64,000 nucleotides of DNA from Candidatus Phosphoribacter baldrii (lineage in GTDB: Bacteria; Actinomycetota; Actinomycetes; Actinomycetales; Dermatophilaceae). Shown here piece by piece: positions 5,533 through 31,126 of the stretch (the first letter of the stretch is position 1; the number at the start of each line of letters is the position of its first letter). Location of the stretch: contig JADIZV010000003.1 of assembly GCA_016704565.1 (NCBI GenBank), positions 91,869-155,868 of the forward strand, in the 5' to 3' direction. The notes below the pieces were generated by a model. The model was given only the letters and a program-made list of their open reading frames with translations. It did not search any database and was not told where the DNA came from. The position numbers were made by a program, and so were the translations under genes.

Positions 5533-5636
5533 CCTCGGAATCAGCCAGCCACCCAGGGTGTTGCGCGGGTGACGACACGAGATGCGCCGATCTACGCCCA
5601 CCTGGGCGTGCCGCTGTGGCGCGGAGGGAGGGGCCG

Positions 5637-7535
5637 ATGAGCTTCGGTCACATGGGCCCCGGCCACCTGGGGATGATGCGCGGGATGACCAAGGACCAGT
5701 CGGTCCTGCGAGCCCGGCTCGATCACGGCACGACCCGTCGGGTGATGGGTTACGCCCGGCCGTTCCTGCGCTCGATCATCGCCTTCCTCACCCTCGTCGT
5801 CCTCGACGCCGGCATCGTTGTCGCCGTCCCCCTGCTGTTGCGCGACCTGGTCGATGTCGGCGTCATCCCCAAGGCGGGCGATGTCGTCGTGCGCCTGGCG
5901 CTGCTGGTCGCCGCGCTGGCCGTCGCCGACGCTGTCCTGGGAATCGCGCAACGGTGGTTCTCCTCCCGGATCGGCGAGGGGCTGATCCTGCAGCTGCGCA
6001 CCGAGGTCTTCGCCCATGTGCTGCGCCAGCCGATCGCGTTCTTCACCCGCGCGCAGACCGGCTCCCTGGTCAGCCGACTCAACTCCGACGTCATCGGCGC
6101 CCAACAGGCGTTCACGTCGGTCCTGTCGTCGGTCGTCTCCAACGCCGTGTCGTTGCTGCTCATCGTCGCGGCGATGGCCACGCTCTCCTGGCAGCTAACC
6201 CTCGGGGCGCTCGCGCTCGTGCCGTTCTTCCTCATCCCGGCCAAGATCATGGGCCGGCGCCTGTCCGAGCTCACCCGCACGATGATGACGGCCAACGCCG
6301 AGCTGGGGACCCGGATGACTGAGCGGTTCAACGTTGCCGGGGCACTGCTCGTCAAGCTTTTCGGCACGCCTGAGCGGGAGGAACGCGAGTATGCCTCCCG
6401 CGCACGGCTCGTGCGCGACACCGGCGTCAAGATCGCGATGAACCGCACCGTCTTCATGGTGGCGATGTCCCTCGTCGCGGCCCTGGCCACTGCGATGGTC
6501 TATGGCGTCGGCGGCCTCATGGCGGTGTCCGGGTCGCTGACCGTCGGGACGCTGCTGGCCCTGGCTGCACTGCTGGCCCGGCTCTACGGCCCGCTCACAG
6601 CCCTATCCAACGTCCGGGTTGATGTCATGACCGCGCTCGTGTCCTTCGACCGGGTCTTCGAGGTGCTCGACCTGCAGCCGCTCGTGGCGCAGGCACCGCA
6701 CCCGGTCCGGTTGCCCGACGGCCCAGTCGAGGTCCAGTTCGAGGACGTCGCCTTCTCGTATCCGTCGGCCGACGAGGTCTCGCTGCGTTCCCTGGAGTCC
6801 ACCGCGTCAGGTGACCGGGCGGGCGGGGGACCGGTCCTGCAGGCGGTGAGCTTCACGGCATACCCGGGGCAACTGGTCGCCCTCGTCGGCCCCAGCGGCG
6901 GCGGCAAGACGACCATGACGTCCCTCGTCGCGCGGCTCTACGACCCCACGGACGGCGTCGTGCGGATCGGGGGAGTGGACCTGCGGGAGGCATCCTTCGC
7001 GTCCCTGCACGAGACCGTCGGCATGGTGACCCAGGAAGCGCACCTCTTTCACGACACGATCCGCGAGAACCTCCGGTATGCCGCCCCCGACGCCACCGAG
7101 GAGCAGATGCGCGAGGCGCTGGAGGCCGCCCAGGTGCTCGGCCTGGTCGATTCGCTGCCCTCCGGCCTGGACACCGTCGTCGGCGACCGCGGCCATCGGC
7201 TGTCGGGTGGGGAGAAGCAACGCCTGGCCATCGCCCGCCTCTTGCTCAAGCAGCCCCAAGTCGTCGTCCTCGACGAAGCGACGGCCCACTTGGACAGCGA
7301 ATCCGAAGTGGCGGTGCAGCGGGCCCTGGACTCCGCGCTGGACGGGCGCACTGCGCTCGTGATTGCCCACCGGCTGTCGACGGTCCGTGGCGCCGACCAG
7401 ATCCTCGTTGTCGAAGACGGCCGGATCGTCGAGAGTGGCAAGCACGCGGAGTTGCTCGGTCGCGGCGGCCTGTATGCCGACCTCTACCGCACGCAGTACT
7501 TCGAGGACAGCACCACCGTCCCCGGTCCGTGGTGA
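5637..7535 (+). CDS. ABC exporter, fused permease/ATPase (type I exporter, MsbA/MdlB-like)
   Basis: Six-TM N-terminal domain, Walker A GPSGGGKTT, signature LSGGEKQR, Walker B VVVLDEAT. ATG 5637 is preceded by GGAGGGAGG. Confidence 0.9.
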   Translation: MSFGHMGPGHLGMMRGMTKDQSVLRARLDHGTTRRVMGYARPFLRSIIAFLTLVVLDAGIVVAVPLLLRDLVDVGVIPKAGDVVVRLALLVAALAVADAVLGIAQRWFSSRIGEGLILQLRTEVFAHVLRQPIAFFTRAQTGSLVSRLNSDVIGAQQAFTSVLSSVVSNAVSLLLIVAAMATLSWQLTLGALALVPFFLIPAKIMGRRLSELTRTMMTANAELGTRMTERFNVAGALLVKLFGTPEREEREYASRARLVRDTGVKIAMNRTVFMVAMSLVAALATAMVYGVGGLMAVSGSLTVGTLLALAALLARLYGPLTALSNVRVDVMTALVSFDRVFEVLDLQPLVAQAPHPVRLPDGPVEVQFEDVAFSYPSADEVSLRSLESTASGDRAGGGPVLQAVSFTAYPGQLVALVGPSGGGKTTMTSLVARLYDPTDGVVRIGGVDLREASFASLHETVGMVTQEAHLFHDTIRENLRYAAPDATEEQMREALEAAQVLGLVDSLPSGLDTVVGDRGHRLSGGEKQRLAIARLLLKQPQVVVLDEATAHLDSESEVAVQRALDSALDGRTALVIAHRLSTVRGADQILVVEDGRIVESGKHAELLGRGGLYADLYRTQYFEDSTTVPGPW

Positions 7536-7545
7536 CCGGCGCTGG

Positions 7546-8343
7546 TCAGCCGTCTTCCTCGTCCCAGATCCGGACCTTCTTGGGCGCAGGGTCCTTCACC
7601 CGTGCCACGGGCTCGCCGGGCGGGTGCCGGTAAAGGTAGACCACGAACGCGGCGCCGAGCAGCGCGGTCAGCCACCACTGCAGCGCGTAGGCGAAGTGCG
7701 GCCCGCGGTCGGGAGTGGGTTGCTCCAGCGCCGCCGGGCGGGGAGGTGCCTGCTGTCCCGCGCCGAGGGACTCACTCCCCAGGACGAGGTATGCCGCGTA
7801 AAGGCGCCCGTCGATCTGGGCCTGGGCCTGCTCGAGGTTGATCGTCGCCAGTTGTCCGGCCGGCAGGCCCTTCTCGCGGGCCTCCTCACTCGGTTTGAGC
7901 CACCCGGTGAGGGTGACCGAGCCCGCAGGGGCGGGCGGGACCGTCGGGAGGTCAGCGGCCTGGTCGCCGTTGGGGACCCAGCCACGATCGACGAGCAGGA
8001 TGGCGCCGCCGTCCACCCGGAACGGGACGAGGACTTCCATACCTTGTGCGGTGTTGAGCGCCCGGCCGCGGACGAGCAGTTGGCCGGAGGCGGCATACTG
8101 GCCGGTGACGGTCACGGGAGTCCAGATCCGCTCTTCGGGCAGTGGCGTCGACGCGGTGGGGAGCACGGACAAGAGCGGGACAGCAGCTGCGTGGTAGTTC
8201 TGCTCGACCGCGTTGGCCCGGGCGTCCTTGTCCTCGTAGCGGGACAGCTGCCACCGACCGAGGAAGAAGCACGCGGTGCCGAAGACGACGGCGAACGCGA
8301 CGGCATACATGATCCGCCGGGTGAAGATCGCGCGCCACACCAC
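7546..8343 (-). CDS. SURF1 family protein (cytochrome oxidase assembly)
   Basis: N-terminal TM then GRWQLSRY motif. C-terminal TM (YALQWWLTALLGAAFV). Confidence 0.8.
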   Translation of the reverse strand: MVWRAIFTRRIMYAVAFAVVFGTACFFLGRWQLSRYEDKDARANAVEQNYHAAAVPLLSVLPTASTPLPEERIWTPVTVTGQYAASGQLLVRGRALNTAQGMEVLVPFRVDGGAILLVDRGWVPNGDQAADLPTVPPAPAGSVTLTGWLKPSEEAREKGLPAGQLATINLEQAQAQIDGRLYAAYLVLGSESLGAGQQAPPRPAALEQPTPDRGPHFAYALQWWLTALLGAAFVVYLYRHPPGEPVARVKDPAPKKVRIWDEEDG

Positions 8344-8363
8344 ATCACCGTAACCGACATAGG

Positions 8364-9404
8364 GTGGCCGCTGTGACGCGCCTGCCCGACCCCCGCCCTC
8401 GACCCCCTGCGGGTGCGGCGCTGGTGGACACCTACGGCCGGGTCGCGCAGGACCTGCGGGTGTCGGTGACCGACCGCTGCTCGTTCCGGTGCACCTATTG
8501 CATGCCCGCGGAGGGGCTGCCGTGGATCCCGCGGGCCGAGATGCTCACCGACGACGAACTCTTGCGACTGGTCGCGGTGTTCGTGTCGGCCGGGGTGACC
8601 CAGGTCCGCCTCACTGGGGGAGAACCGTTGCTGCGCCGCAGCATCGTCGATCTGGTGGCAGGCATCGGTGAACTGCGGCCCCGACCGTCGATCGCCATGA
8701 CAACCAACGGCGCGGGGCTAGCCCGCGTCGCTGCGGGCCTGAAGGCTGCAGGCCTGGATCGGGTCAACGTCTCGCTGGACACCATCGACACCGAACAGTT
8801 CAGGACGCTCACCCGGCGCGACCGGCTCACCGACGTCATCGAGGGCCTGGCGGCGGCCGCCGACGCTGGGCTGACCCCCGTCAAGGTCAACGCGGTTGCC
8901 ATGCGCGGGGTCAACGACGACGCGGTCATCGACCTGCTGAGCTGGTGCCTGGAGCGAGGTTATGAGCTGCGGTTCATCGAACAGATGCCCTTGGACGCCC
9001 AGCACGGCTGGGAGCGTTCAGTGATGGTGACGGCCGACGAGATCCGCGCCCGGTTGGCGACCCGCTTCACCCTCTCGCCGGCTCCGTGGGGCGACCGTGG
9101 CAGTGCTCCGGCCCAACGCTTCCTCGTCGACGGCGGGCCGGCCACCGTGGGGATCATCGCCAGTGTGTCGGCGCCGTTCTGTTCAGCCTGCGACCGGGTC
9201 CGGCTCACCGCCGACGGCCAGGTGCGCAACTGCCTGTTCTCGGAGCGCGAGACCGACCTGCGTGGACCGCTGCGCGACGGGGCGTCCGACGACGACCTGC
9301 TGGCTCTCATCCGGGGCGAGATGTGGCGCAAGGGACCCGCGCATGGCATCGGGCGGCCGGACTTCCACCAACCGGACCGTCCGATGTCGGCGATCGGCGG
9401 GTAG
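8364..9404 (+). CDS. moaA: GTP 3',8-cyclase MoaA (radical SAM)
   Basis: CSFRCTYCMP radical-SAM cluster motif, C-terminal CSACDRVRLTADGQVRNCLF second cluster, ends ...MSAIGG. Confidence 0.9.
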   Translation: MAAVTRLPDPRPRPPAGAALVDTYGRVAQDLRVSVTDRCSFRCTYCMPAEGLPWIPRAEMLTDDELLRLVAVFVSAGVTQVRLTGGEPLLRRSIVDLVAGIGELRPRPSIAMTTNGAGLARVAAGLKAAGLDRVNVSLDTIDTEQFRTLTRRDRLTDVIEGLAAAADAGLTPVKVNAVAMRGVNDDAVIDLLSWCLERGYELRFIEQMPLDAQHGWERSVMVTADEIRARLATRFTLSPAPWGDRGSAPAQRFLVDGGPATVGIIASVSAPFCSACDRVRLTADGQVRNCLFSERETDLRGPLRDGASDDDLLALIRGEMWRKGPAHGIGRPDFHQPDRPMSAIGG

Positions 9405-9458: not shown

Positions 9459-10672
<1,214 letters not shown>

Positions 10673-10714: not shown

Positions 10715-11476
10715 GTGGGCCTGTTCGACGGCAAGACGCTTCTGATCACCGGAGTCCTCATGGACACCTCGATCGCCTTCCATGTGGCCAAGTTGGCGCA
10801 GGAGCAGGGCGCGTCGGTCATCCTCACGTCCTTCGGGCGGACCATGAAGATCACCCAGACCATCGCCCGACGCCTGCCGGTGACCCCGCCGGTGGTGGAA
10901 CTGGACGTGAGCAACCCCGAGCACCTGGAGAGCCTGGCCGAGCGGCTGCGCGAGCACACCGATCAGATCGACGGAGTGCTGCACTCGATCGGGTTCGCCC
11001 CGCAGGGCGCGTTCACCTTCCTCGACGCGACCTGGGAGGACGTGGGGACTGCCGTCCAGGTGTCGGCCTACAGCCTCAAGGCGCTGGCGGTCGCGGCAAT
11101 GCCGCTCATGGTGCCCGGCGGGTCGATCGTCGGGCTGACCTTCGACGCGCGCTATGCCTGGCCGGTCTATGACTGGATGGGCGTCGCGAAGGCAGCGTTC
11201 GAGTCGACGAACCGCTACTGCGCCCGCGACCTAGGCCCCAAGGGCATCCGCTGCAACCTCGTCGCCGCCGGGCCGATCCGCACGACGGCCGCCAAGTCCA
11301 TCCCAGGCTTTGAGGTCTTCGAGGAGCAGTGGGACACCCGAGCGCCGCTCGGCTGGGACGTCACCGACCCGCTGCCGACCGCGAAGGCGTGCGTCGCGCT
11401 GCTCTCGGACTGGTTCCCGGCGACGACGGGAGAGATCGTCCACGTCGATGGCGGCGTCCACGCGATGGGCTGCTGA
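10715..11476 (+). CDS. inhA: Enoyl-ACP reductase (NADH), FabI/InhA type
   Basis: GKTLLITGVLMDTSIAFHVAK..., YDWMGVAKAAFES (Tyr/Lys catalytic pair). Follows fabG. Confidence 0.9.
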   Translation: MGLFDGKTLLITGVLMDTSIAFHVAKLAQEQGASVILTSFGRTMKITQTIARRLPVTPPVVELDVSNPEHLESLAERLREHTDQIDGVLHSIGFAPQGAFTFLDATWEDVGTAVQVSAYSLKALAVAAMPLMVPGGSIVGLTFDARYAWPVYDWMGVAKAAFESTNRYCARDLGPKGIRCNLVAAGPIRTTAAKSIPGFEVFEEQWDTRAPLGWDVTDPLPTAKACVALLSDWFPATTGEIVHVDGGVHAMGC

Positions 11477-11502: not shown

Positions 11503-13722
11503 ATGGAACCCGTGCGCGCCGACGAGGTGCGGATCCTCGAAGGTCCGAACCTCTACGTCAACCGACCGGCGGTCAAAGTGAGCCTGGTGATGCCCGGGCA
11601 GCTGGGGATGGACGGCCACGAGGCGCTCGCCCTCGGCCGGAGGCTGGGGTTGGGCACGGCCCGGCCAGGTCGGCCCGGCACCGGACAGCGACAGCGCTTC
11701 CTCATGAGGGTCGTCGAACACGTCGTGCGTCGGGTCGCTGCCGAGGCGGGGGTGCGCCGCCTGGCCGTGCGGTCTCGGGCGGGACGGCATACCGAGGAGG
11801 TCGTCGTGGCCGTGCCGTGGCGACGCCGCGGGCGGGCGGTCGCCCTCGGTGAGGCACTGGCCCCACTGCTGACCGCGTTGTCTGAGCCGAACGCAGATGC
11901 GCAGGCTCTCATTGCGGCGGCCGGAGCCGCCGTCGCGGCGGCGCCGGTCGGGGCGCCTGCTGCCGTGATCACCCCCGCCGTGCCCGTTATCACCATCACC
12001 GGAACCAACGGCAAGACGACGACCACGCGGATGGTCGCCCACATGGTCATGACGGCCGGTTTGCGCACGGCCTGGAGCTCGACCGACGGCGTTGTCGTCA
12101 TGGGTGAGATGGTGCAGCCAGGGGACTACTCCGGTCCCGGTGGGGCGCGAGAGGTGCTCGGGACCCCGGGCCTGGAGGTGGGAATCCTCGAGACGGCCCG
12201 GGGCGGGATGCTCCTCAAGGGGATGGGAGTCAACCAGACCGACGTCACGGTGGTGACCAACGTTGCCGCAGATCACTTGGGGCTCAACGGGATCGACACC
12301 CTCGACCAGCTGGCCGAGGTCAAGGCCATCCCCACTCTCATTGTCAAGCCGACGGGGTGGACGGTCCTCAACGGCGACGACCCACGGGTTTGGGCGATGC
12401 GGCACCGGGCCCGCGGCCGGATCTGGGCGTTCTCCCTCGACCCCAACTCGCCGGCCCTGCGTGAGTCGCTCGCTGCCAGCGGGCGAGGCATCACCGTCCT
12501 GGACGGTGAGATCGTCGTCCTGACCCTTGGACGTGACCCTGACCGGCTGGTCAAGGTCGTCGACGTGCCGATGACCCTGGCGGGCCTGTCCCGGATCAAC
12601 ATCGCCAACGTGCTCGGCGCGACGGCCGGTGGGCTGGCTTTGGGGCTGGCTCGGGCGTCGGTTGTCGAGGGGCTGCGGTCGTTCCGGCCCGACCCGGTGC
12701 TCAACGCGGGCCGGTTCAATACCTACTCGGTCCCTCTCGCCGCCGGGGGCTCGGTCTCCGTGGTCGTCGACATGGCGCACAACGAGGCGGGGCTGGAGGC
12801 TCTCCTAGAGGTATGCCGCGGGCTCACCGCTCCCGGTGGCCGGGTGCGGATGGGCATCGGCGGCACGGGAGACCGGCTGCCCGAGGCCAACGCGGCCTTG
12901 GGGGAGATCGCCGGGCGTGGGGCCGACCAGGTGGTGCTGGCCCACAAGCTCAAGTACCTGCGCGGGATGACCCTGGCCCAGATGGACTCCCTGCTGCGAG
13001 AGGGCCTCTCTCGCTCCGGGATGCCCGAGGTCGACGGTTACGAGAGCGAGATCGAGGCCCTGACCGTCCTCCTGGCCGACGCCGACGACGGCGACGTCAT
13101 CGGGCTGATGTGCCACGACCAACGCGACCCGGTGGCTCAGTTGCTCGCCGAGCGGGGTGGCACCGTCGACGAGCCGCGAACCATCCGCCGCAAGGTCATC
13201 GCCTCTCGTGGCCTGCACGAGGCGGAGGATGAGATCGCCGCGGTCTGGGCATTGGGGGACCCGGAAGCCAGGGTGACAGCTGCTGGTCGGTTGGCCGCGG
13301 CCCACCCCTCCGACGCTCGCCTGGCCTACGAGTGGGCGTGTGCCATCGATGCCACGGGAGATCGCGGCCGGGCCGTCTCGATGTACCACAAGGCTCTTGA
13401 CGCGGGTCTGCGCGAGCCGCACCGGCACCGGGCCCAGCTGCAGGCCGCAGCGGCATACCGGGATCTGGATCACCCGGAGATTGCCGTCGAACTGCTCGAC
13501 ACGGTCGGCGCGGGCCACCCCGGCAGTTCCGCGGTCGCCGCGCTGCGGGCGTTGGTGCTGTTGGACACCGGTCAGGCGACCGAGGCCGTCGCCGAGCTCA
13601 TCGACGCGCTGCTGGACCACGCCACTGATGACGACGCAGCGGCATACCGGATCGCGCTGCACCAGGCGGCCGCGCAGCTACGCGTGGCGGCTCGGGAAGA
13701 CCCGGACACGCCGACCGCCTGA
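11503..13722 (+). CDS. CphA-paralogous protein: cyanophycin-synthetase-like N-domain, Mur-ligase (M) domain and a C-terminal TPR-like domain; no ATP-grasp (G) domain
   Basis: The N-terminus (RILEGPNLYVNRPAVKV) parallels the cphA N-terminus (RILETRVYRGPNIWSYEPAV). P-loop ITGTNGKTTTTRMVAHM parallels cphA VTGTNGKTTTSRMIAHI. No GFPVVVKP-type ATP-grasp segment. The last ~170 aa are helical-repeat-like (...AYRIALHQAA). ATG 11503 lies 26 nt after the inhA stop. Confidence 0.75.
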   Translation: MEPVRADEVRILEGPNLYVNRPAVKVSLVMPGQLGMDGHEALALGRRLGLGTARPGRPGTGQRQRFLMRVVEHVVRRVAAEAGVRRLAVRSRAGRHTEEVVVAVPWRRRGRAVALGEALAPLLTALSEPNADAQALIAAAGAAVAAAPVGAPAAVITPAVPVITITGTNGKTTTTRMVAHMVMTAGLRTAWSSTDGVVVMGEMVQPGDYSGPGGAREVLGTPGLEVGILETARGGMLLKGMGVNQTDVTVVTNVAADHLGLNGIDTLDQLAEVKAIPTLIVKPTGWTVLNGDDPRVWAMRHRARGRIWAFSLDPNSPALRESLAASGRGITVLDGEIVVLTLGRDPDRLVKVVDVPMTLAGLSRINIANVLGATAGGLALGLARASVVEGLRSFRPDPVLNAGRFNTYSVPLAAGGSVSVVVDMAHNEAGLEALLEVCRGLTAPGGRVRMGIGGTGDRLPEANAALGEIAGRGADQVVLAHKLKYLRGMTLAQMDSLLREGLSRSGMPEVDGYESEIEALTVLLADADDGDVIGLMCHDQRDPVAQLLAERGGTVDEPRTIRRKVIASRGLHEAEDEIAAVWALGDPEARVTAAGRLAAAHPSDARLAYEWACAIDATGDRGRAVSMYHKALDAGLREPHRHRAQLQAAAAYRDLDHPEIAVELLDTVGAGHPGSSAVAALRALVLLDTGQATEAVAELIDALLDHATDDDAAAYRIALHQAAAQLRVAAREDPDTPTA

Positions 13723-13741: not shown

Positions 13742-16642
13742 TCAGCCCTCCGTCGTGGCCTCGGAGTCGGACTCCCCGTCCTCGTCGGCTGAGGCGGGAG
13801 TCATGGCGAGGTCCTCGGCCGCGGCGCCGGCGGCGGCGCCGGAAGCGGCCGCCGCGTCGTAGAGCTCCACGGGGTCCAGGTCGGGGTCGGCGACCCCATC
13901 GCCGTGCGAACCCGGCTGGGCCTGGCGGGTCATGTCCTCAAGTGCCGCAAACACCTCGGCGGACTTGTCGACGCAGACCACCACGAGGTCACCGGGGTTG
14001 GCCCGGGCCATGATGTGTCCGACGGCCTGCAACTCGTCCAGGACGATGTCGACTTGGCGGCAGCGCACCCCGCCCTTCTGCATGGCTTCCAGGACGCCCT
14101 CACGGATGAGCTCGGCGGCCTCACCCGGTCGGCGCCCACGCAACCGGGAGTCCTCCCGGACGACCAGGACGTCGAAGTGCCGTGCGGCCACGGCGCCGAG
14201 CTCGCGCAAGTCGGAGTCGCGCCGGTCGCCGGCCGACCCGATAGCCCCGATCCGCGAGACGCGCCCGAGGTCCGCGCGGCCCTCGCGGGTCGCGGCATAC
14301 CGATCGACGAAGTCACCCAGTGCGCGCATGCCGGCGGCGTTGTGGCAGTAGTCGACGAACACTTCGACGTTGTTGACCTCGACGAGGTTGAGCCGTCCGG
14401 GGGAGAGGTAGTAGTTCGTCGTGAAGGTGCGCAGCCCTTGCCGGATGTCGTGCAGCGGAGCCCCCGCGGCAAACGCAGCCCCGGCCGCGGCCAGCGAGTT
14501 GGCGACGTTGAACCGGGCCGTGCCGCCGAAGGTCGAGGGCAACAGGTGGGTCCAGGCCAGCTGCATGGCCCGGCGTCCGTGCTGGATGACGATCATGTCG
14601 CCTCGGTCGGTGGGCTCCAGGTAGACGGCCCGTCCGCCTCGCCGACAGTGGGCGTCGACGAACTCACGGATCTCGCTGCCGGGTGTGGCGAGGGTGAACC
14701 AGATGACCTCCCCAGCACACCGTCGACGCATGGCGCGAACGTGCGGGTCGTCCGCGTTCAGGACGGCAAACCCGTTCTTGGGCACCGCTTCCACGACGAC
14801 CGCCTTGACCGCGGCGAGCTCGGCGAGGGTGTTGATCCCGCGCAGCCCCAGGTGGTCAGGTGCCACGTTGGTGACCACCGCGACGTCGTTGCGGTCATAT
14901 CCGAGTCCCTCGCGGAGTATGCCGCCCCGCGCCACCTCCATGACCGCGAAGTCGACCCGAGGGTTCATCAGGACCATCCGGGCCGACTTCGGTCCGGATG
15001 CGTCGGCCTTGATGACCAGGCGCTCGTCGATGACGACGCCGTCGGTCGAGGTCATCCCGACCTTGCGGCCCAACCCCTTGAAGATGTGGGCGATCATCCG
15101 CGAGGTGGTCGTCTTGCCGTTGGTCCCGGTCACGGCAATGATCGGCACGCGGGACGGGGCGCCCGGCGGGAACAGCAGGTCGACGACCGGCTTGGCGATG
15201 AACTGCGGCACCCCGACAGTGGGGTGGGTGTGCATCCGGAAGCCCGGTGCGGCGTTGACCTCGACAATGGCCCCGCCGGTCTCGCGGACCGGGGCGGCGA
15301 TGTCGGGGCAGATGAAGTCGATCCCGGCGACGTCGAGGCCGACCATCCGGGCAGCCTCCTCGGCCACCTCGATGTTGTCGGGGTGGGCGTCGAAGGTCCG
15401 GTCGATCGAGATCCCGCCGGTGGACATGTTCCCGGTCAGCGCCAACCGCACCATCACCCCATCGGCCGGCACTGAGGTCAGCGAGTAGCCCTGGCCTTCG
15501 AGCACCTCGATGGCGGCGGCGTCGACCTTGATCCGGGTGAGGACCTTCTCGTGGCCCACGCCGCGGCGCGGGTCTGAGTTGGTGATGTCGACAAGTTCCT
15601 TGACGGTGTGCTCGCCGTCGCCGACGACGTGGGCGGGCACGCGCTCGGCAATAGCCTGCATCCGGCCGCCGACGATGAGACAGCGGTAGTCCCGGCCCGT
15701 GACGAACGACTCGACGACGAGGACGCCGCTGCGGGACTGCTCCTTGGCGATGTCGTAGGCCTTCTCGACATCGTCGAGTGAGCGCAGGTTGAGGCAGACG
15801 CCCCGCCCGTGGTTGCCATCCAGCGGCTTGACGACCACGGGGAAGCCGATCTCGCGCGCTGCGTCCAGCACGCCGCGCAGAGTCCGCACCGCGTGCTGCT
15901 TGGGCGTGGGGAGCCCAGCGGCGGCCAGGAGCTTGCCGGTGAGGTCCTTGTCGCTCGCGATGTCGACGGCCAGCGCGCCCGTCCGTGAGGTCATCGTGGC
16001 TCGGATCCGCTGGGCGTGGACGCCCTGCCCGAGCTGCACAAGAGAGGCGGAGTTGAGCCGAATCCACGGGATGTCCCGGCTGACTGCTTCCTCGATGATT
16101 GCGGCGGTCGATGGACCGAACGCAGCCCGGTCGGCCTTGCGCAGGAACGCGTCAAGCTCCTGAGCGAAGTCGAAGCCCTCCTGCGTCTGAACGAGGTGGT
16201 TGACCAGTCGGACGGCGAGCTCCCCGGCCGCGATTCCCACCGTCTCGTCGACGTAGCCGAAGATGACGTTGTAGACGCCGGTGCGCCCTTTGACCATCCG
16301 GGTCTTCCCGCGACGCAGGTCGTGCCCGGCAGCCGTCTGCAATTCAAGGGCGACGTGCTCGGCGACGTGGCCGAGCCAGGTCCCGTCCTCGAGTCGTTCG
16401 ATGAACCCGCCCGCGCGCCCCACCGAGCAGGTATGCCGTCGCAGCCCCGGCAGCAACTCGACCAGGGCCGGAGTGAAGCCCTCGATGGAATCGCTCGGGT
16501 AGCCCTCAAGGACCCCGAGGTCGACGACCAGGTGGACGGCCGGCTCGTAGGACCAGATGTTGGGACCCCGATAGACCCTCGTCTCAAGGATGCGCACATC
16601 CGGCGCGATGGGGCCGGTCGGGGTGGGGTGGTCCTTCGCCAT
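13742..16642 (-). CDS. cphA: Cyanophycin synthetase CphA (N, ATP-grasp G and Mur-ligase M domains)
   Basis: 966 aa. N-domain, ATP-grasp GFPVVVKPLDGNHGRGV, Mur-ligase P-loop VTGTNGKTTTSRM. Ala/acidic C-terminal tail. Confidence 0.9.
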   Translation of the reverse strand: MAKDHPTPTGPIAPDVRILETRVYRGPNIWSYEPAVHLVVDLGVLEGYPSDSIEGFTPALVELLPGLRRHTCSVGRAGGFIERLEDGTWLGHVAEHVALELQTAAGHDLRRGKTRMVKGRTGVYNVIFGYVDETVGIAAGELAVRLVNHLVQTQEGFDFAQELDAFLRKADRAAFGPSTAAIIEEAVSRDIPWIRLNSASLVQLGQGVHAQRIRATMTSRTGALAVDIASDKDLTGKLLAAAGLPTPKQHAVRTLRGVLDAAREIGFPVVVKPLDGNHGRGVCLNLRSLDDVEKAYDIAKEQSRSGVLVVESFVTGRDYRCLIVGGRMQAIAERVPAHVVGDGEHTVKELVDITNSDPRRGVGHEKVLTRIKVDAAAIEVLEGQGYSLTSVPADGVMVRLALTGNMSTGGISIDRTFDAHPDNIEVAEEAARMVGLDVAGIDFICPDIAAPVRETGGAIVEVNAAPGFRMHTHPTVGVPQFIAKPVVDLLFPPGAPSRVPIIAVTGTNGKTTTSRMIAHIFKGLGRKVGMTSTDGVVIDERLVIKADASGPKSARMVLMNPRVDFAVMEVARGGILREGLGYDRNDVAVVTNVAPDHLGLRGINTLAELAAVKAVVVEAVPKNGFAVLNADDPHVRAMRRRCAGEVIWFTLATPGSEIREFVDAHCRRGGRAVYLEPTDRGDMIVIQHGRRAMQLAWTHLLPSTFGGTARFNVANSLAAAGAAFAAGAPLHDIRQGLRTFTTNYYLSPGRLNLVEVNNVEVFVDYCHNAAGMRALGDFVDRYAATREGRADLGRVSRIGAIGSAGDRRDSDLRELGAVAARHFDVLVVREDSRLRGRRPGEAAELIREGVLEAMQKGGVRCRQVDIVLDELQAVGHIMARANPGDLVVVCVDKSAEVFAALEDMTRQAQPGSHGDGVADPDLDPVELYDAAAASGAAAGAAAEDLAMTPASADEDGESDSEATTEG

Positions 16643-16684: not shown

Positions 16685-17635
16685 TTAGGCGGACGGTGGC
16701 ACAGTCGCATGGGCCGGGACCATCGGCGCGCGGTCTTTCGCAGCGACGACAGCGACCTCGATATCGGGGTGGCGCTCGACGAATCGCACGAGTGACACCG
16801 AGTCGAGGTCGAACGTCGCGCCAGTCGGCAACGTGTGCACCTTGGCCCCGGACACCAACAGCGGAGCACCACGCCGTGCCTCGGGGGCATCGGTGACGGC
16901 CTCCCTCGCGTCGAGGACGAACACCGCCCCGGCGCCGACCACCGACAGGAGCCGTTCGTCGCGGATCTCGGCGGCGGTGTTCTCATCGATGCCGACCCCG
17001 AGCAGGCTGGGGGAGTTGGCGACGATCGACAGCAGCCGTCCATAGCGGCCTCGTTGGTCGAAGTGCTGGTCGACGACGACGCCCGTGAGCAGCCCGAGTC
17101 CGGCCGACAGCTGGCTGGAGCGCTGGCGGGGGGTGATCCCTTCGTCGCCGAGGGAGATCATGAACTGGCTCATGATCGAGGCGCCCGCCGACGTTCCGGC
17201 GATGACCGCCCCGCGCCGGTAGGCCCGGTGGATCGCGTCCCCGACCGGCGTGCCGACGACGTTTTGGCTGAGCTTGAGCTGGCTACCGCCGGTCATGAAC
17301 ACCCCGGTGGCTGCGTCGATCGTTGCCACTAACTCGGGCGAGGATGCGGCCGCTCGGGTCGGCGGGTGGACGATCTGGACGTCGGGGCCGGCCTTGAGCC
17401 GGGCGAACACCGTCCGATAGAGCGCGGCGGCCTCAGCGGAGAACGACGAGGCCGTCGGAATGACGACGATCCGGGAGGACCGCCCTCCCGCCAGGCGCAC
17501 GAACCGGCGCAGGACCACCGACCGTCCCAGCTTGTCCTCGGCCCCCCCGATGATGAGCAAGGTGCGCCGCACGGGCCGGGGGGCGGGCGGCATACCGGCC
17601 CCATCGGTGGGGCCCGCAGTGGAAAGCACCGTCAC
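16685..17635 (-). CDS. cphB: Cyanophycinase CphB (peptidase S51)
   Basis: LLIIGGAEDK and GTSAGASIM (serine nucleophile) motifs. The GTG start at 17635 overlaps the serB stop (GTGA). Lies 42 nt upstream of cphA. Confidence 0.85.
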   Translation of the reverse strand: MTVLSTAGPTDGAGMPPAPRPVRRTLLIIGGAEDKLGRSVVLRRFVRLAGGRSSRIVVIPTASSFSAEAAALYRTVFARLKAGPDVQIVHPPTRAAASSPELVATIDAATGVFMTGGSQLKLSQNVVGTPVGDAIHRAYRRGAVIAGTSAGASIMSQFMISLGDEGITPRQRSSQLSAGLGLLTGVVVDQHFDQRGRYGRLLSIVANSPSLLGVGIDENTAAEIRDERLLSVVGAGAVFVLDAREAVTDAPEARRGAPLLVSGAKVHTLPTGATFDLDSVSLVRFVERHPDIEVAVVAAKDRAPMVPAHATVPPSA

Positions 17636-18934: not shown

Positions 18935-19438
18935 TCAGTCGTCGGGGGAGAGGATCTCGTCGGAGGAGAGGATCTCGTGGAGCAGGGCGAGATCGTGGAC
19001 GTCGACCGGGCGTAGGGGATAGCCCGAATGGACCCGCGCCTGCAGCACGGGGGAAGCGCACCGGACGGTGCGTCCACCGATCAGGCCGCCGACGATCGAC
19101 CCTTCCGGGTAGCGGTAACGCCCACCGTCCGGGGCGGCCTGCCACCACCCGCCCGACCCGTCGGGATGGACGGGGTGGACATCGACGACCTGTATGCCGT
19201 CATCCAACTCCACGCGCACCGGCAGCCAGTCGGTGGTGACAACAAAACCCTTGTCCTGCAACGCGTCGAGCACCTGGGCCAGCCGGTCGGCCAACACCAT
19301 GACGTCCAGGTCGCGGTGCACGCGGGTCTGTCGCTCGACGAGGGCATCGACACCCCAGCCGCCGGCGATCCACGGCTGCGCGCCGACCGACTCCAGCAGG
19401 ACGAGCAGGTCCAGGACCTCGATGTCCGACACGGCCAC
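18935..19438 (-). CDS. Nucleotidyltransferase, ANT(2'')/Lnu(F)-like (PF10706-like)
   Basis: WIAGGWGVDALVERQTRVHRDLDVMV and GRTVRCASP resemble aminoglycoside 2''-adenylyltransferase-family proteins. The 3' end carries an 18-bp tandem duplication (18945-18980) encoding EILSSDEILSPDD. Confidence 0.6.
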   Translation of the reverse strand: MAVSDIEVLDLLVLLESVGAQPWIAGGWGVDALVERQTRVHRDLDVMVLADRLAQVLDALQDKGFVVTTDWLPVRVELDDGIQVVDVHPVHPDGSGGWWQAAPDGGRYRYPEGSIVGGLIGGRTVRCASPVLQARVHSGYPLRPVDVHDLALLHEILSSDEILSPDD

Positions 19439-19439
19439 C

Positions 19440-20348
19440 TCAGTCGGCCCCCGTCGCAGGCGTGGAGTCAGATACTGCAGCCGAGCGAGCGTTGACCTCG
19501 TCGCGCCAGGCCAGGACGTCGCGGACCGGTCCGAGGTCGTAGGGAGGAGTGGTCAGACTCACCGTGAGCAGCCGGGTCCCGACGTCGAACAGCGCCTGAG
19601 CCTGGGCGGCGTAGTCCAGCGACGAGTCCTCCGGCAACCGGGCCGGAGTGAACGCCACGCCCGCCGACCGCTCGATCTCCAAGGGGTCCCGCCCTCGTGC
19701 CGCGCACCAGTCGTCGAGCACGAGGTGCTTGTGGCGGATCGTCTCGGGGTCGCCGAACCCGTGCCAGATGTCGGCATGCTCCGCGGTGATCCGCAGCGTC
19801 TTGCGCTCACCGCCACCACCGATCAACACCGGGATCGCGCGCGTCGGCGCCGGATTGAGTCGCGTCCAGCGGTCCTTGAGCACCGGCAGATCGCGGGCCA
19901 GGGCGTCCAGCCGAGACCCGGACGTCCCGAAGTCATACCCGTAGTCGACGTAGTCCCGCTCAAACCACCCAGCGCCGATCCCTAACACCAACCGGCCGCC
20001 GCTGATGTGGTCGACGGTCCGGGACATATCGGCAAGCAGCTGCGGGTTGCGATAGGACATCGACGACACCAGCACCCCGAGCTCGACCCGCTCGGTCGCC
20101 TCGGCCCAGGCCGACAGCAGCGTCCACGCCTCGAAGTGCATCCCGTCCGGGTCGCCGGACAGCGGGAAGAAGTGGTCCCACGTCAGCACCAGGTCGACGC
20201 CAAGCCCCTCCAAAGCCACGCACGTGTCGCGTAACGCGGCATACGGGGCATGTTGGGGGGCGACCTGAACGGCGACGCGCGCGGGTCGTGGGTCACCCAC
20301 AGAGGCCGGTATGCCGTCGCGCCGCTGCCCTTGCGGTTGAAAGCTCAC
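19440..20348 (-). CDS. LLM-class (luciferase-like) oxidoreductase, probably F420-dependent
   Basis: ISGGRLVLGIGAGW and LIGGGGERKTLRITAEHAD motifs of the LLM class. Confidence 0.8.
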   Translation of the reverse strand: MSFQPQGQRRDGIPASVGDPRPARVAVQVAPQHAPYAALRDTCVALEGLGVDLVLTWDHFFPLSGDPDGMHFEAWTLLSAWAEATERVELGVLVSSMSYRNPQLLADMSRTVDHISGGRLVLGIGAGWFERDYVDYGYDFGTSGSRLDALARDLPVLKDRWTRLNPAPTRAIPVLIGGGGERKTLRITAEHADIWHGFGDPETIRHKHLVLDDWCAARGRDPLEIERSAGVAFTPARLPEDSSLDYAAQAQALFDVGTRLLTVSLTTPPYDLGPVRDVLAWRDEVNARSAAVSDSTPATGAD

Positions 20349-31017: not shown

Positions 31018-31101
31018 GTCCGGGTGGCGGAATGGCAGACGCGCTAGCTTGAGGTGCTAGTGCCCTTAACGGGCGTGGGGGTTCAAGTCCCCCTCCGGAC
31101 A
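31018..31101 (+). tRNA. tRNA-Leu (anticodon GAG), long variable arm, no encoded CCA
   Basis: Manual cloverleaf: acceptor GTCCGGG/TCCGGAC, anticodon stem CTAGC/GCTAG with loop TTGAGGT, variable arm GCCC..GGGC, T arm GGGGG TTCAAGT CCCCC, discriminator A. Confidence 0.85.
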
Positions 31102-31126
31102 CGCATGTGATGTCTTAGGACATCGG

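Follow-up and report, generated by a model that had tools for sequence, protein, structure and literature searches.

What does a cyanophycin synthetase paralogue do when it has no ATP-grasp domain and lies beside a complete cyanophycin synthetase gene? The question is raised by a 64,000-nucleotide stretch of Candidatus Phosphoribacter baldrii DNA (assembly GCA_016704565.1, contig JADIZV010000003.1, positions 91,869 to 155,868 of the forward strand; hereafter the window), in which the gene at 11503-13722 encodes a protein with the N and M domains of CphA1, no ATP-grasp (G) domain and a C-terminal tetratricopeptide repeat (TPR) tail. Ca. Phosphoribacter baldrii has been reported to be the dominant polyphosphate accumulator of wastewater plants across the world, and the nitrogen-storage polymer cyanophycin has been named as a candidate for its anaerobic storage compound (PMC9123174). 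An initial annotation of the window had described this domain plan and had suggested that the product could be an accessory ligase, a primer or anchor factor, or a regulator. We find that the gene is a member of a large conserved family and not a singular oddity, and we favor, on balance, the reading that its product is a side-chain ligase that works in trans on polymer supplied by CphA1.

Domain organization of the G-less CphA paralogue

The gene and its parts are as follows; residue numbers refer to the protein, and AF2 denotes AlphaFold2.

11503-13722, forward strand: whole gene of the G-less CphA paralogue (N domain, M domain and TPR tail), 739 residues
11503-11976, forward strand: CphA-type N domain, residues 1-158 (hhalign, AF2 and Foldseek)
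11707-11721, forward strand: R69-V-V-E72-H73, aligned with the HxxEH metallopeptidase motif of CphA1 (hhalign and family alignment)
11977-13167, forward strand: CphA-type M domain, residues 159-555 (Pfam, TIGR02068, BLASTP and Foldseek)
11998-12021, forward strand: P-loop TGTNGKTT, residues 166-173, in which K171/T172 correspond to K499/T500 of TeCphA1
12937-12969, forward strand: Mlid loop LAHKLKYLRGM, residues 479-489, with an inserted Tyr and without the acidic 'ED' that the CphA1 motif has
13168-13719, forward strand: C-terminal helical region, residues 556-739 (Pfam and AF2), found only in the Dermatophilaceae clade
13321-13626, forward strand: Pfam TPR_5, residues 607-708 (E 2e-19, 70.3 bits against a cutoff of 24.2, model positions 3-106 of 119)

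The frame opens with the ATG at 11503 and closes with the stop codon at 13720-13722, and this start is backed by close homologues, which begin with MEPV or MQPV at the same position. A longer frame from a GTG at 11329, which overlaps the end of inhA, is unsupported by these homologues.

The M domain matches Pfam Mur_ligase_M at residues 165-374 (E 2e-14, 54.4 bits against a cutoff of 24) and Mur_ligase_C at residues 416-535 (E 3e-10, 41.3 bits against a cutoff of 28.4). The CphA model TIGR02068 fits the domain at E 1e-97, as against about 1e-22 for MurE models, which match only from about residue 159 on, the Mur-type N-terminal UDP-MurNAc-binding domain being absent. The kinship with the adjacent cphA1 that the initial annotation had pointed out is evident in BLASTP, with 37% identity between the two M domains (E 6e-57). 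The best PDB sequence matches are likewise CphA1 M domains (7wac, 7lg5), and a Foldseek search with the full-length AF2 model (predicted local distance difference test (pLDDT) 84.8, predicted template modeling score (pTM) 0.69) returned the CphA1 structures 7lg5, 7lgj, 7lgq and 7wae on top (E about 1e-27), with MurE next (E about 1e-16).

For the predicted CphA-type N domain, Pfam and BLASTP alone were insufficient: PF18921 (Cyanophycin_syn) gave no match at E<=1, and BLASTP against the neighboring CphA1 aligned only 23 residues, in the 'VRILEGPNLY' stretch (E 0.019). Profile and structure comparisons bore the prediction out. With hhalign, the N-domain profile of the family matched that of CphA1 over 157 columns (95.4% probability, E 1.9e-8), the N domain of wider, TPR-less relatives matched it at 98.7% (E 3e-16), and the two sets of N+M proteins matched each other in this domain at 99.9%, while ten column-shuffled controls gave at most 1.1% probability and E values of at least 0.05. 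An AF2 model of residues 1-160 (pLDDT 89.4, pTM 0.86) retrieved CphA1 or CphA2 N domains from the PDB as all of its top 14 Foldseek matches (TM 0.50-0.64, probability 1.0), and every match after these had a probability of 0.38 or less. These comparisons support homology of the N-terminal ~160 residues to CphA N domains.

The N domain of CphA1 carries an HxxEH metallopeptidase motif (PMC9262961). At the corresponding position of the protein studied here the first His is replaced by an Arg (R69) that all family members share, the residues at 72 and 73 vary, and the Cys-bearing loop upstream is absent from the family in both the hhalign and the family alignments. Because R69 replaces the His and the Cys loop is missing, the cryptic peptidase site of CphA1 is gone from this protein.

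As the initial annotation had it, there is no G domain: Pfam detects no ATP-grasp family in the protein at E<=1. In the AF2 model a linker of about 15 residues joins the end of the N domain (near residue 146) to the start of the P-loop strand (161), which leaves no space for a G domain. TIGR02068 aligns only to residues 159-550, at model positions 478-860 (its M domain), and the whole protein scores 328 bits against this model, under the curated cutoff of 850. Since the G domain is absent, chain elongation by this protein is impossible, and it would not be expected to produce cyanophycin from Asp, Arg and ATP.

The C-terminal region has the TPR_5-type helical character expected from the first reading of the gene. 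Beyond the Pfam match listed above, AF2 models residues 558-732 as all-helical, a run of helical hairpins; sequence matches of the tail to solved structures are marginal (BH0479, E 0.029; MamA, E 0.08).

Conservation of the M-domain active site

The possibility that the M domain is degenerate, raised with the initial annotation, is not borne out. The P-loop residues K499/T500, the Mg ligands T522/E558 and the Mlid residues R731/H748 of TeCphA1 (PMC9427784) align to K171, T172, T194, E230, R404 and H426, respectively. All six are invariant in 24 family members (57-85% identity) and essentially invariant in the wider G-less lineages. The comparison with known CphA1 site residues covered these ATP/Mg and Mlid residues, and the rest of the site was assessed by conservation across lineages: the His of DHLG (H258) and K274 are 100% kept in all lineages, and 45 of the 54 positions that are invariant in diverse CphA1 M domains are kept in the protein. 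Conservation of this kind shows purifying selection on the predicted catalytic machinery of the M domain.

Distribution of N+M proteins

Homologues with the N+M+TPR architecture occupy the top 120 matches in a search of 5.8 billion proteins; their sources are Dermatophilaceae/Intrasporangiaceae (Ca. Phosphoribacter, Lapillicoccus, Terrabacter, Humibacillus, Oryzihumus, Nostocoides and Pedococcus). An exhaustive search of representatives added two more sets of proteins, of 540-590 residues, with an N-like region and an M domain and with neither TPR nor G domain. Group A aligns to query residues 2-569 at 35-51% identity, and N+M forms without a TPR are present in Nocardioides as well as in further Actinomycetota. 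Group B, found in Myxococcota, Pseudomonadota and Acidobacteriota, begins with M.L.DSRRLTGPN and matches the query directly in the M domain only, its N region being tied to group A by hhalign (98.6%). The DUF4938 (PF16292) match in precomputed annotations of some group-B proteins is sub-threshold and overlaps Mur_ligase_M, and was not used. One metagenomic protein of group-B type (P0260, 757 residues) carries a DUF559/REase-like endonuclease domain at residues 134-238 (E 3e-32), between its N-like region and its M domain.

We also scanned one genome per species with an N-terminal motif drawn from a 9-sequence alignment, and at least 577 stretches encode a relative. The locus counts that follow rest on the best 80 of these at least 577 loci, and the flank counts on the 63 of them with at least 8 kb of downstream flank. 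A TPR tail is encoded in 59 of the 80; the 21 loci without a detected tail comprise 15 full-flank Nocardioides/Propionibacteriales loci and others truncated by the contig end, where the tail is not assessable. The TPR-less loci among the 80 have no separate TPR-like open reading frame (ORF). The tail is a later, lineage-specific addition and does not define the family; since it is missing from most relatives, the conserved core function must be independent of it.

In our protein the N domain is strongly basic (21 Arg, net +9, isoelectric point (pI) 11.6), as it is throughout the TPR-fused clade (net +6 to +10, mean +8.3, pI about 11), in contrast to the mildly acidic N domains of CphA1 (mean net about -3, pI about 6). 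The TPR-less relatives are mixed (-19 to +11), with group A mixed and group B acidic, so that a basic N domain is a trait of the TPR-fused clade and not of the whole family.

Association with cphA1

In the window, the genes next to the G-less paralogue are the following.

9782-10672, forward strand: fabG-type ketoacyl reductase, upstream of inhA
10715-11476, forward strand: inhA/fabI-type enoyl-acyl carrier protein reductase, a conserved neighbor 26 nucleotides upstream of the G-less paralogue
13742-16642, reverse strand: full-length cphA1 (N, G and M domains), 966 residues, convergent with the G-less paralogue
16355-16429, reverse strand: intact Cx19HxxEH primer-generating motif in this CphA1, residues 72-96
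16685-17635, reverse strand: cphB-type cyanophycinase (family match to Peptidase_S51)

The two genes meet tail-to-tail, with 19 nucleotides between the stop codon of the paralogue and that of cphA1 (at 13742); the coordinates of the paralogue and both gaps had been given correctly in the initial annotation. The neighboring CphA1 scores 1153 bits against TIGR02068 (cutoff 850) and matches the Pfam families Cyanophycin_syn, ATP-grasp, Mur_ligase_M and Mur_ligase_C. Past it lie cphB, serB, glgC and glgA, and the same cphA1-cphB-serB-glgC-glgA cluster has already been described in Tetrasphaera (PMC10687191).

This association is not confined to the window. Orthologues do not occur mainly in contexts without cphA, an outcome that the initial annotation had considered: a full-length, convergent cphA1 lies downstream on the opposite strand in 63 of 63 loci, cphB is present in 60, and inhA is directly upstream, in the order fabG-inhA-N+M, in 62. 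We saw no CphA2-type dipeptide polymerase in the examined loci. In several Lapillicoccus-like and other metagenome-assembled genomes (MAGs; loci L013, L022, L024-L026, L034, L038, L045 and L060), the N+M-TPR gene and cphA1 lie further apart, with 3.4-5.8 kb of additional DNA between them.

The link to cphA1 recurs in distant relatives with varied gene orders. One group-A locus has cphA1 followed, after a 4-nucleotide gap (9996 to 10001), by a same-strand N+M gene, an M20 peptidase and an amidohydrolase; in a second the N+M gene is convergent with cphA1 with zero intergenic gap, and a third has the order N+M, 4HBT, cphB, cphA1. Group-B genes lie directly downstream of cphA1 in four of six contexts, including Enhygromyxa salina and a Congregibacter MAG; the short flanks of a 3.2-kb contig (L087) gave no cphA1 match, and a Thermoanaerobaculia contig (L091) has no cphA within 7 kb. 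The fabG-inhA neighborhood, in turn, is limited to two actinobacterial lineages, whereas cphA1 accompanies the G-less gene in several phyla. Genes for an M20 peptidase and/or Amidohydro_1-type (isoaspartyl-dipeptidase-like) proteins flank the G-less gene at L081 (11661-14405), L090 (8692-9822) and L089 (1451-2650), and the G-less ligase candidate therefore sits in clusters that mix synthesis and degradation genes.

Evolutionary relationships

In a neighbor-joining tree of M domains, a coarse method applied to about 390 columns, CphA1, the actinobacterial N+M clan and group B are recovered with bootstrap values of 80, 94 and 84 of 100, respectively, values to be read with the caveat that the initial groups were motif-based and that P0191 and P0198 (initially group B) and P0194 (initially CphA1) were reassigned post hoc after the first tree. 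Support is 100/100 for a clade of the TPR-fused proteins, which nests next to the Nocardioides type, and the CphA1 set takes in the copies that adjoin N+M genes. Because the tree sets the G-less lineages apart from CphA1, we draw the limited conclusion that they are old paralogues and not recent duplicates of the adjoining cphA1. Recent tandem duplication of the neighboring cphA1 is rejected by the 38% identity of the M domains and their separate clans, and gene decay by the intact frame, the invariant catalytic residues and conservation over hundreds of species genomes.

The G-less actinobacterial N+M clan is a grouping defined in this analysis and not a curated family; our protein belongs to it by its N+M architecture, separate M-domain clustering, Mlid Tyr ('YLRGR') and cphA1 adjacency. 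The inserted Tyr is present in 24 of 24 close relatives, 21 of 21 group-A proteins and 69% of group B, and is absent in 12 of 13 CphA1 sequences. The 'YLRGR' Tyr could be a usable signature for separating G-less paralogues from true cphA in surveys. Some CphA-like proteins of intermediate length (about 760-810 residues; P0255, P0234, P0197 and P0244, of 766-811 residues) have shortened ATP-grasp regions, and possibly represent stages of G-domain loss or relatives of proteobacterial CphA'.

Predicted function

By analogy with CphA1, the reading that we favor, with moderate confidence, is that the protein is a stand-alone, catalytically competent side-chain (isopeptide) ligase that acts in trans on CphA1-made poly-Asp or cyanophycin. 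ATP bound at the P-loop would serve to phosphorylate the free beta-carboxyl of a backbone Asp, as in the M domain of CphA1, and an incoming amino acid would attack the phosphorylated Asp to form an isopeptide bond. The protein would do so on polymer supplied by the adjacent CphA1, because without a G domain it cannot elongate a chain itself. In this way bare Asp residues could be filled in or charged again, or a different side-chain residue could be attached. In the Dermatophilaceae clade the TPR domain would probably serve for docking to CphA1, to the granule or to a regulator, and the basic N domain of the TPR-fused proteins would favor an Arg-poor, acidic polymer. We infer the activity, the substrate, the added amino acid and the role of the TPR tail from these likenesses.

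We prefer this reading because the catalytic residues are under selection, the N domain and Mcore are kept, and the coupling to cphA1/cphB is repeated across phyla. At the CphA1 M site the cyanophycin chain runs between N and Mcore (PMC9427784), and these two groove modules are exactly those that the G-less protein keeps. In Tetrasphaera MAGs both 'cphA copies' are expressed, the shorter one at a lower level (PMC10687191); the shorter copy is presumably the gene described here.

Several points weigh against a trans-acting ligase. The adjacent CphA1 has its own intact M domain, and a second Arg ligase is not obviously needed. CphA1 is known to attach Arg to the C-terminal Asp ahead of each further elongation step, and few internal Asp residues may therefore be left bare. 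Within the M domain, three residues invariant in CphA1 are replaced, R577 of 'ARGGILR' by L238, H665 by S322 and Y765 by M424 (Met or Leu in the family), and the CphA1 Mlid motif 'KEDxD-LRGR' gives way to 'AHKxxYLRGR'. The AF2 model also falls below a pLDDT of 50 at the active-site loops 233-237, 256-280 and 357-360. These substitutions may mean that substrate or amino-acid specificity differs from that of CphA1. By eye, the Mlid loop would lie at the 'DNPR' amino-acid-binding motif of MurE; if this correspondence holds, contacts with the incoming amino acid or the polymer may be unlike those in CphA1.

Other explanations are less likely. The protein could be a non-catalytic or ATP-sensing partner that binds CphA1, through N/M-type interfaces and here also the TPR, or the granule, and regulates polymer length, localization or turnover. 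The C-terminal TPR_5 protein-interaction domain, the oligomerization of CphA1 enzymes (PMC9262961), the lower expression than cphA1 and the completeness of the M domain in the neighboring CphA1 would all fit such a role. Yet all known ATP/Mg catalytic residues are invariant at about 35-85% family identity, which is unexpected for a scaffold, and most relatives, those of Nocardioides and of groups A and B among them, have no TPR; we consider this role unlikely. We regard as slightly less likely still a primer or dipeptide synthase that would join Arg to free Asp or short Asp peptides, providing beta-Asp-Arg units or primers to CphA1. M-type chemistry makes exactly such an isopeptide bond, clusters often encode isoaspartyl-dipeptidase-like amidohydrolases, and primer supply limits some CphA1 enzymes (PMC9262961); the neighboring CphA1, however, has the complete Cx19HxxEH motif that renders CphA1 primer-independent (PMC9262961), no CphA2-type dipeptide polymerase was seen in the loci, and the retained polymer-tethering N domain points to a polymeric substrate.

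The conserved gene order on the other side of the paralogue invites a third explanation, a ligase of an unrelated pathway (e.g., a cell-wall peptide or a lipid-linked modification) for which the fabG-inhA link would be meaningful and cphA incidental. The 26-nucleotide gap to inhA, the fabG-inhA-N+M order in nearly all examined loci, the use of Mur-ligase folds in many pathways and the one group-B gene without cphA within 7 kb are compatible with it. We think it very unlikely: the N domain is CphA-specific, the M domain fits the CphA model far better than MurE, and it is the cphA1 link, not the fabG-inhA one, that recurs across phyla and gene orders.

A trans-acting ligase might have wider consequences. 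It is conceivable, although we would not expect it, that the G-less N+M proteins constitute a third widespread class of cyanophycin enzyme, one that adds a non-Arg residue or charges internal Asp residues in trans. The polymer stored by Ca. Phosphoribacter, and by many other bacteria, would then differ chemically from canonical cyanophycin, and specificity would be set by the altered Mlid loop (inserted Tyr, lost acidic residues) and, in the TPR-fused clade, by the basic N domain. A trans-acting side-chain ligase would, if confirmed, be a useful tool for tailored cyanophycins. Cultured relatives that have the gene (Terrabacter, Humibacillus, Intrasporangium and Nocardioides) make the hypothesis directly testable.

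Naming also bears on how such loci are read. The protein is at least 99% identical to the database entry 'tetratricopeptide repeat protein [Candidatus Phosphoribacter baldrii]', its 90%-identity cluster bears the NCBI name 'tetratricopeptide repeat protein' and the JGI name 'cyanophycin synthetase', and group A and B proteins are called 'Mur ligase family protein' or 'cyanophycin synthetase'. With names this inconsistent, surveys can count the gene as a second cphA.

Other features of the window

The neighboring CphA1 ends in a very acidic, low-complexity tail of 61 residues (906-966, net -14). Two ORFs without a Pfam match, at 19194-19985 (forward strand, 263 residues) and 7363-8376 (forward strand, 337 residues), keep their position in most related loci (30-70% identity in tblastn), one between serB and glgC and the other upstream of moaA. 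The sole Rfam or ARAGORN match in the window is a tRNA-Leu (GAG) at 31018-31102 (forward strand), 17 kb from the G-less gene. Scans for promoters and terminators, which bear on the possible co-transcription with fabG-inhA that the initial annotation had raised, and a search for inverted repeats in the 19-nucleotide convergent gap returned nothing usable in this DNA of 70% GC.

Comparison with known systems

No characterized member of the family was found in the literature searched, which omits most subscription journals, in keeping with the initial annotation. Among known proteins, MurE and other Mur ligases (e.g., PDB 1E8C) have in common with it the fold of an ATP-dependent amide ligase in the middle and C-terminal domains; our protein differs in having a CphA-type N domain and no UDP-substrate domain, and the sequence similarity is far weaker than to CphA1. 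TPR_5 proteins (PF12688; BH0479, PDB 3K9I) resemble its C-terminal ~100 residues, which score well over the family cutoff, but here the domain is fused to a predicted enzyme and the sequence match to BH0479 is marginal. We know of no function for the TPR_5 family of BH0479.

The cphA/cphA' pairs of beta-proteobacteria (Cupriavidus, Acidovorax) likewise place a second, divergent 'cyanophycin synthetase' gene next to cphA, which may make or modify a different, exported polymer (Price et al., bioRxiv 072470). We compared CphA' by description only. Its clusters have an ABC transporter and DUF1854 and lack cphB, unlike the locus studied here, where cphB is present, no DUF1854 was seen, and the ABC transporter at 5616-7535 is 4 kb from the G-less gene, with moaA and fabG-inhA in between.

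With CphA1 (PDB 7LG5, 7LGQ, 7WAE; TIGR02068) the G-less protein shares homologous N and M domains, the latter complete with Mcore and Mlid, as well as the P-loop, the Mg ligands and the Mlid Arg and His, and it is encoded beside cphA1 and cphB. It differs from CphA1 in lacking the ATP-grasp G domain (about 330 residues) and the Cx19HxxEH site, in its altered Mlid loop and added TPR tail, and in the placement of its M domain in a separate clan. CphA2 (PDB 7TA5, 8FXH) is another CphA paralogue of reduced form; it retains the N domain and functions alongside CphA1, but its G domain is active and its M domain truncated and inactive (PMC10273328). The reduction in our protein is the opposite one, a full-length M domain with Mlid and no G domain, as the initial annotation had recognized. 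Cyanophycin synthesis is now explained by CphA1 (N, G and M) and CphA2 (N, G and a dead M); an N+M enzyme that is conserved and seems to be active, and whose gene adjoins cphA1 in four phyla or more, would supply the missing complementary class, and could change the view of which polymer the host bacteria make.

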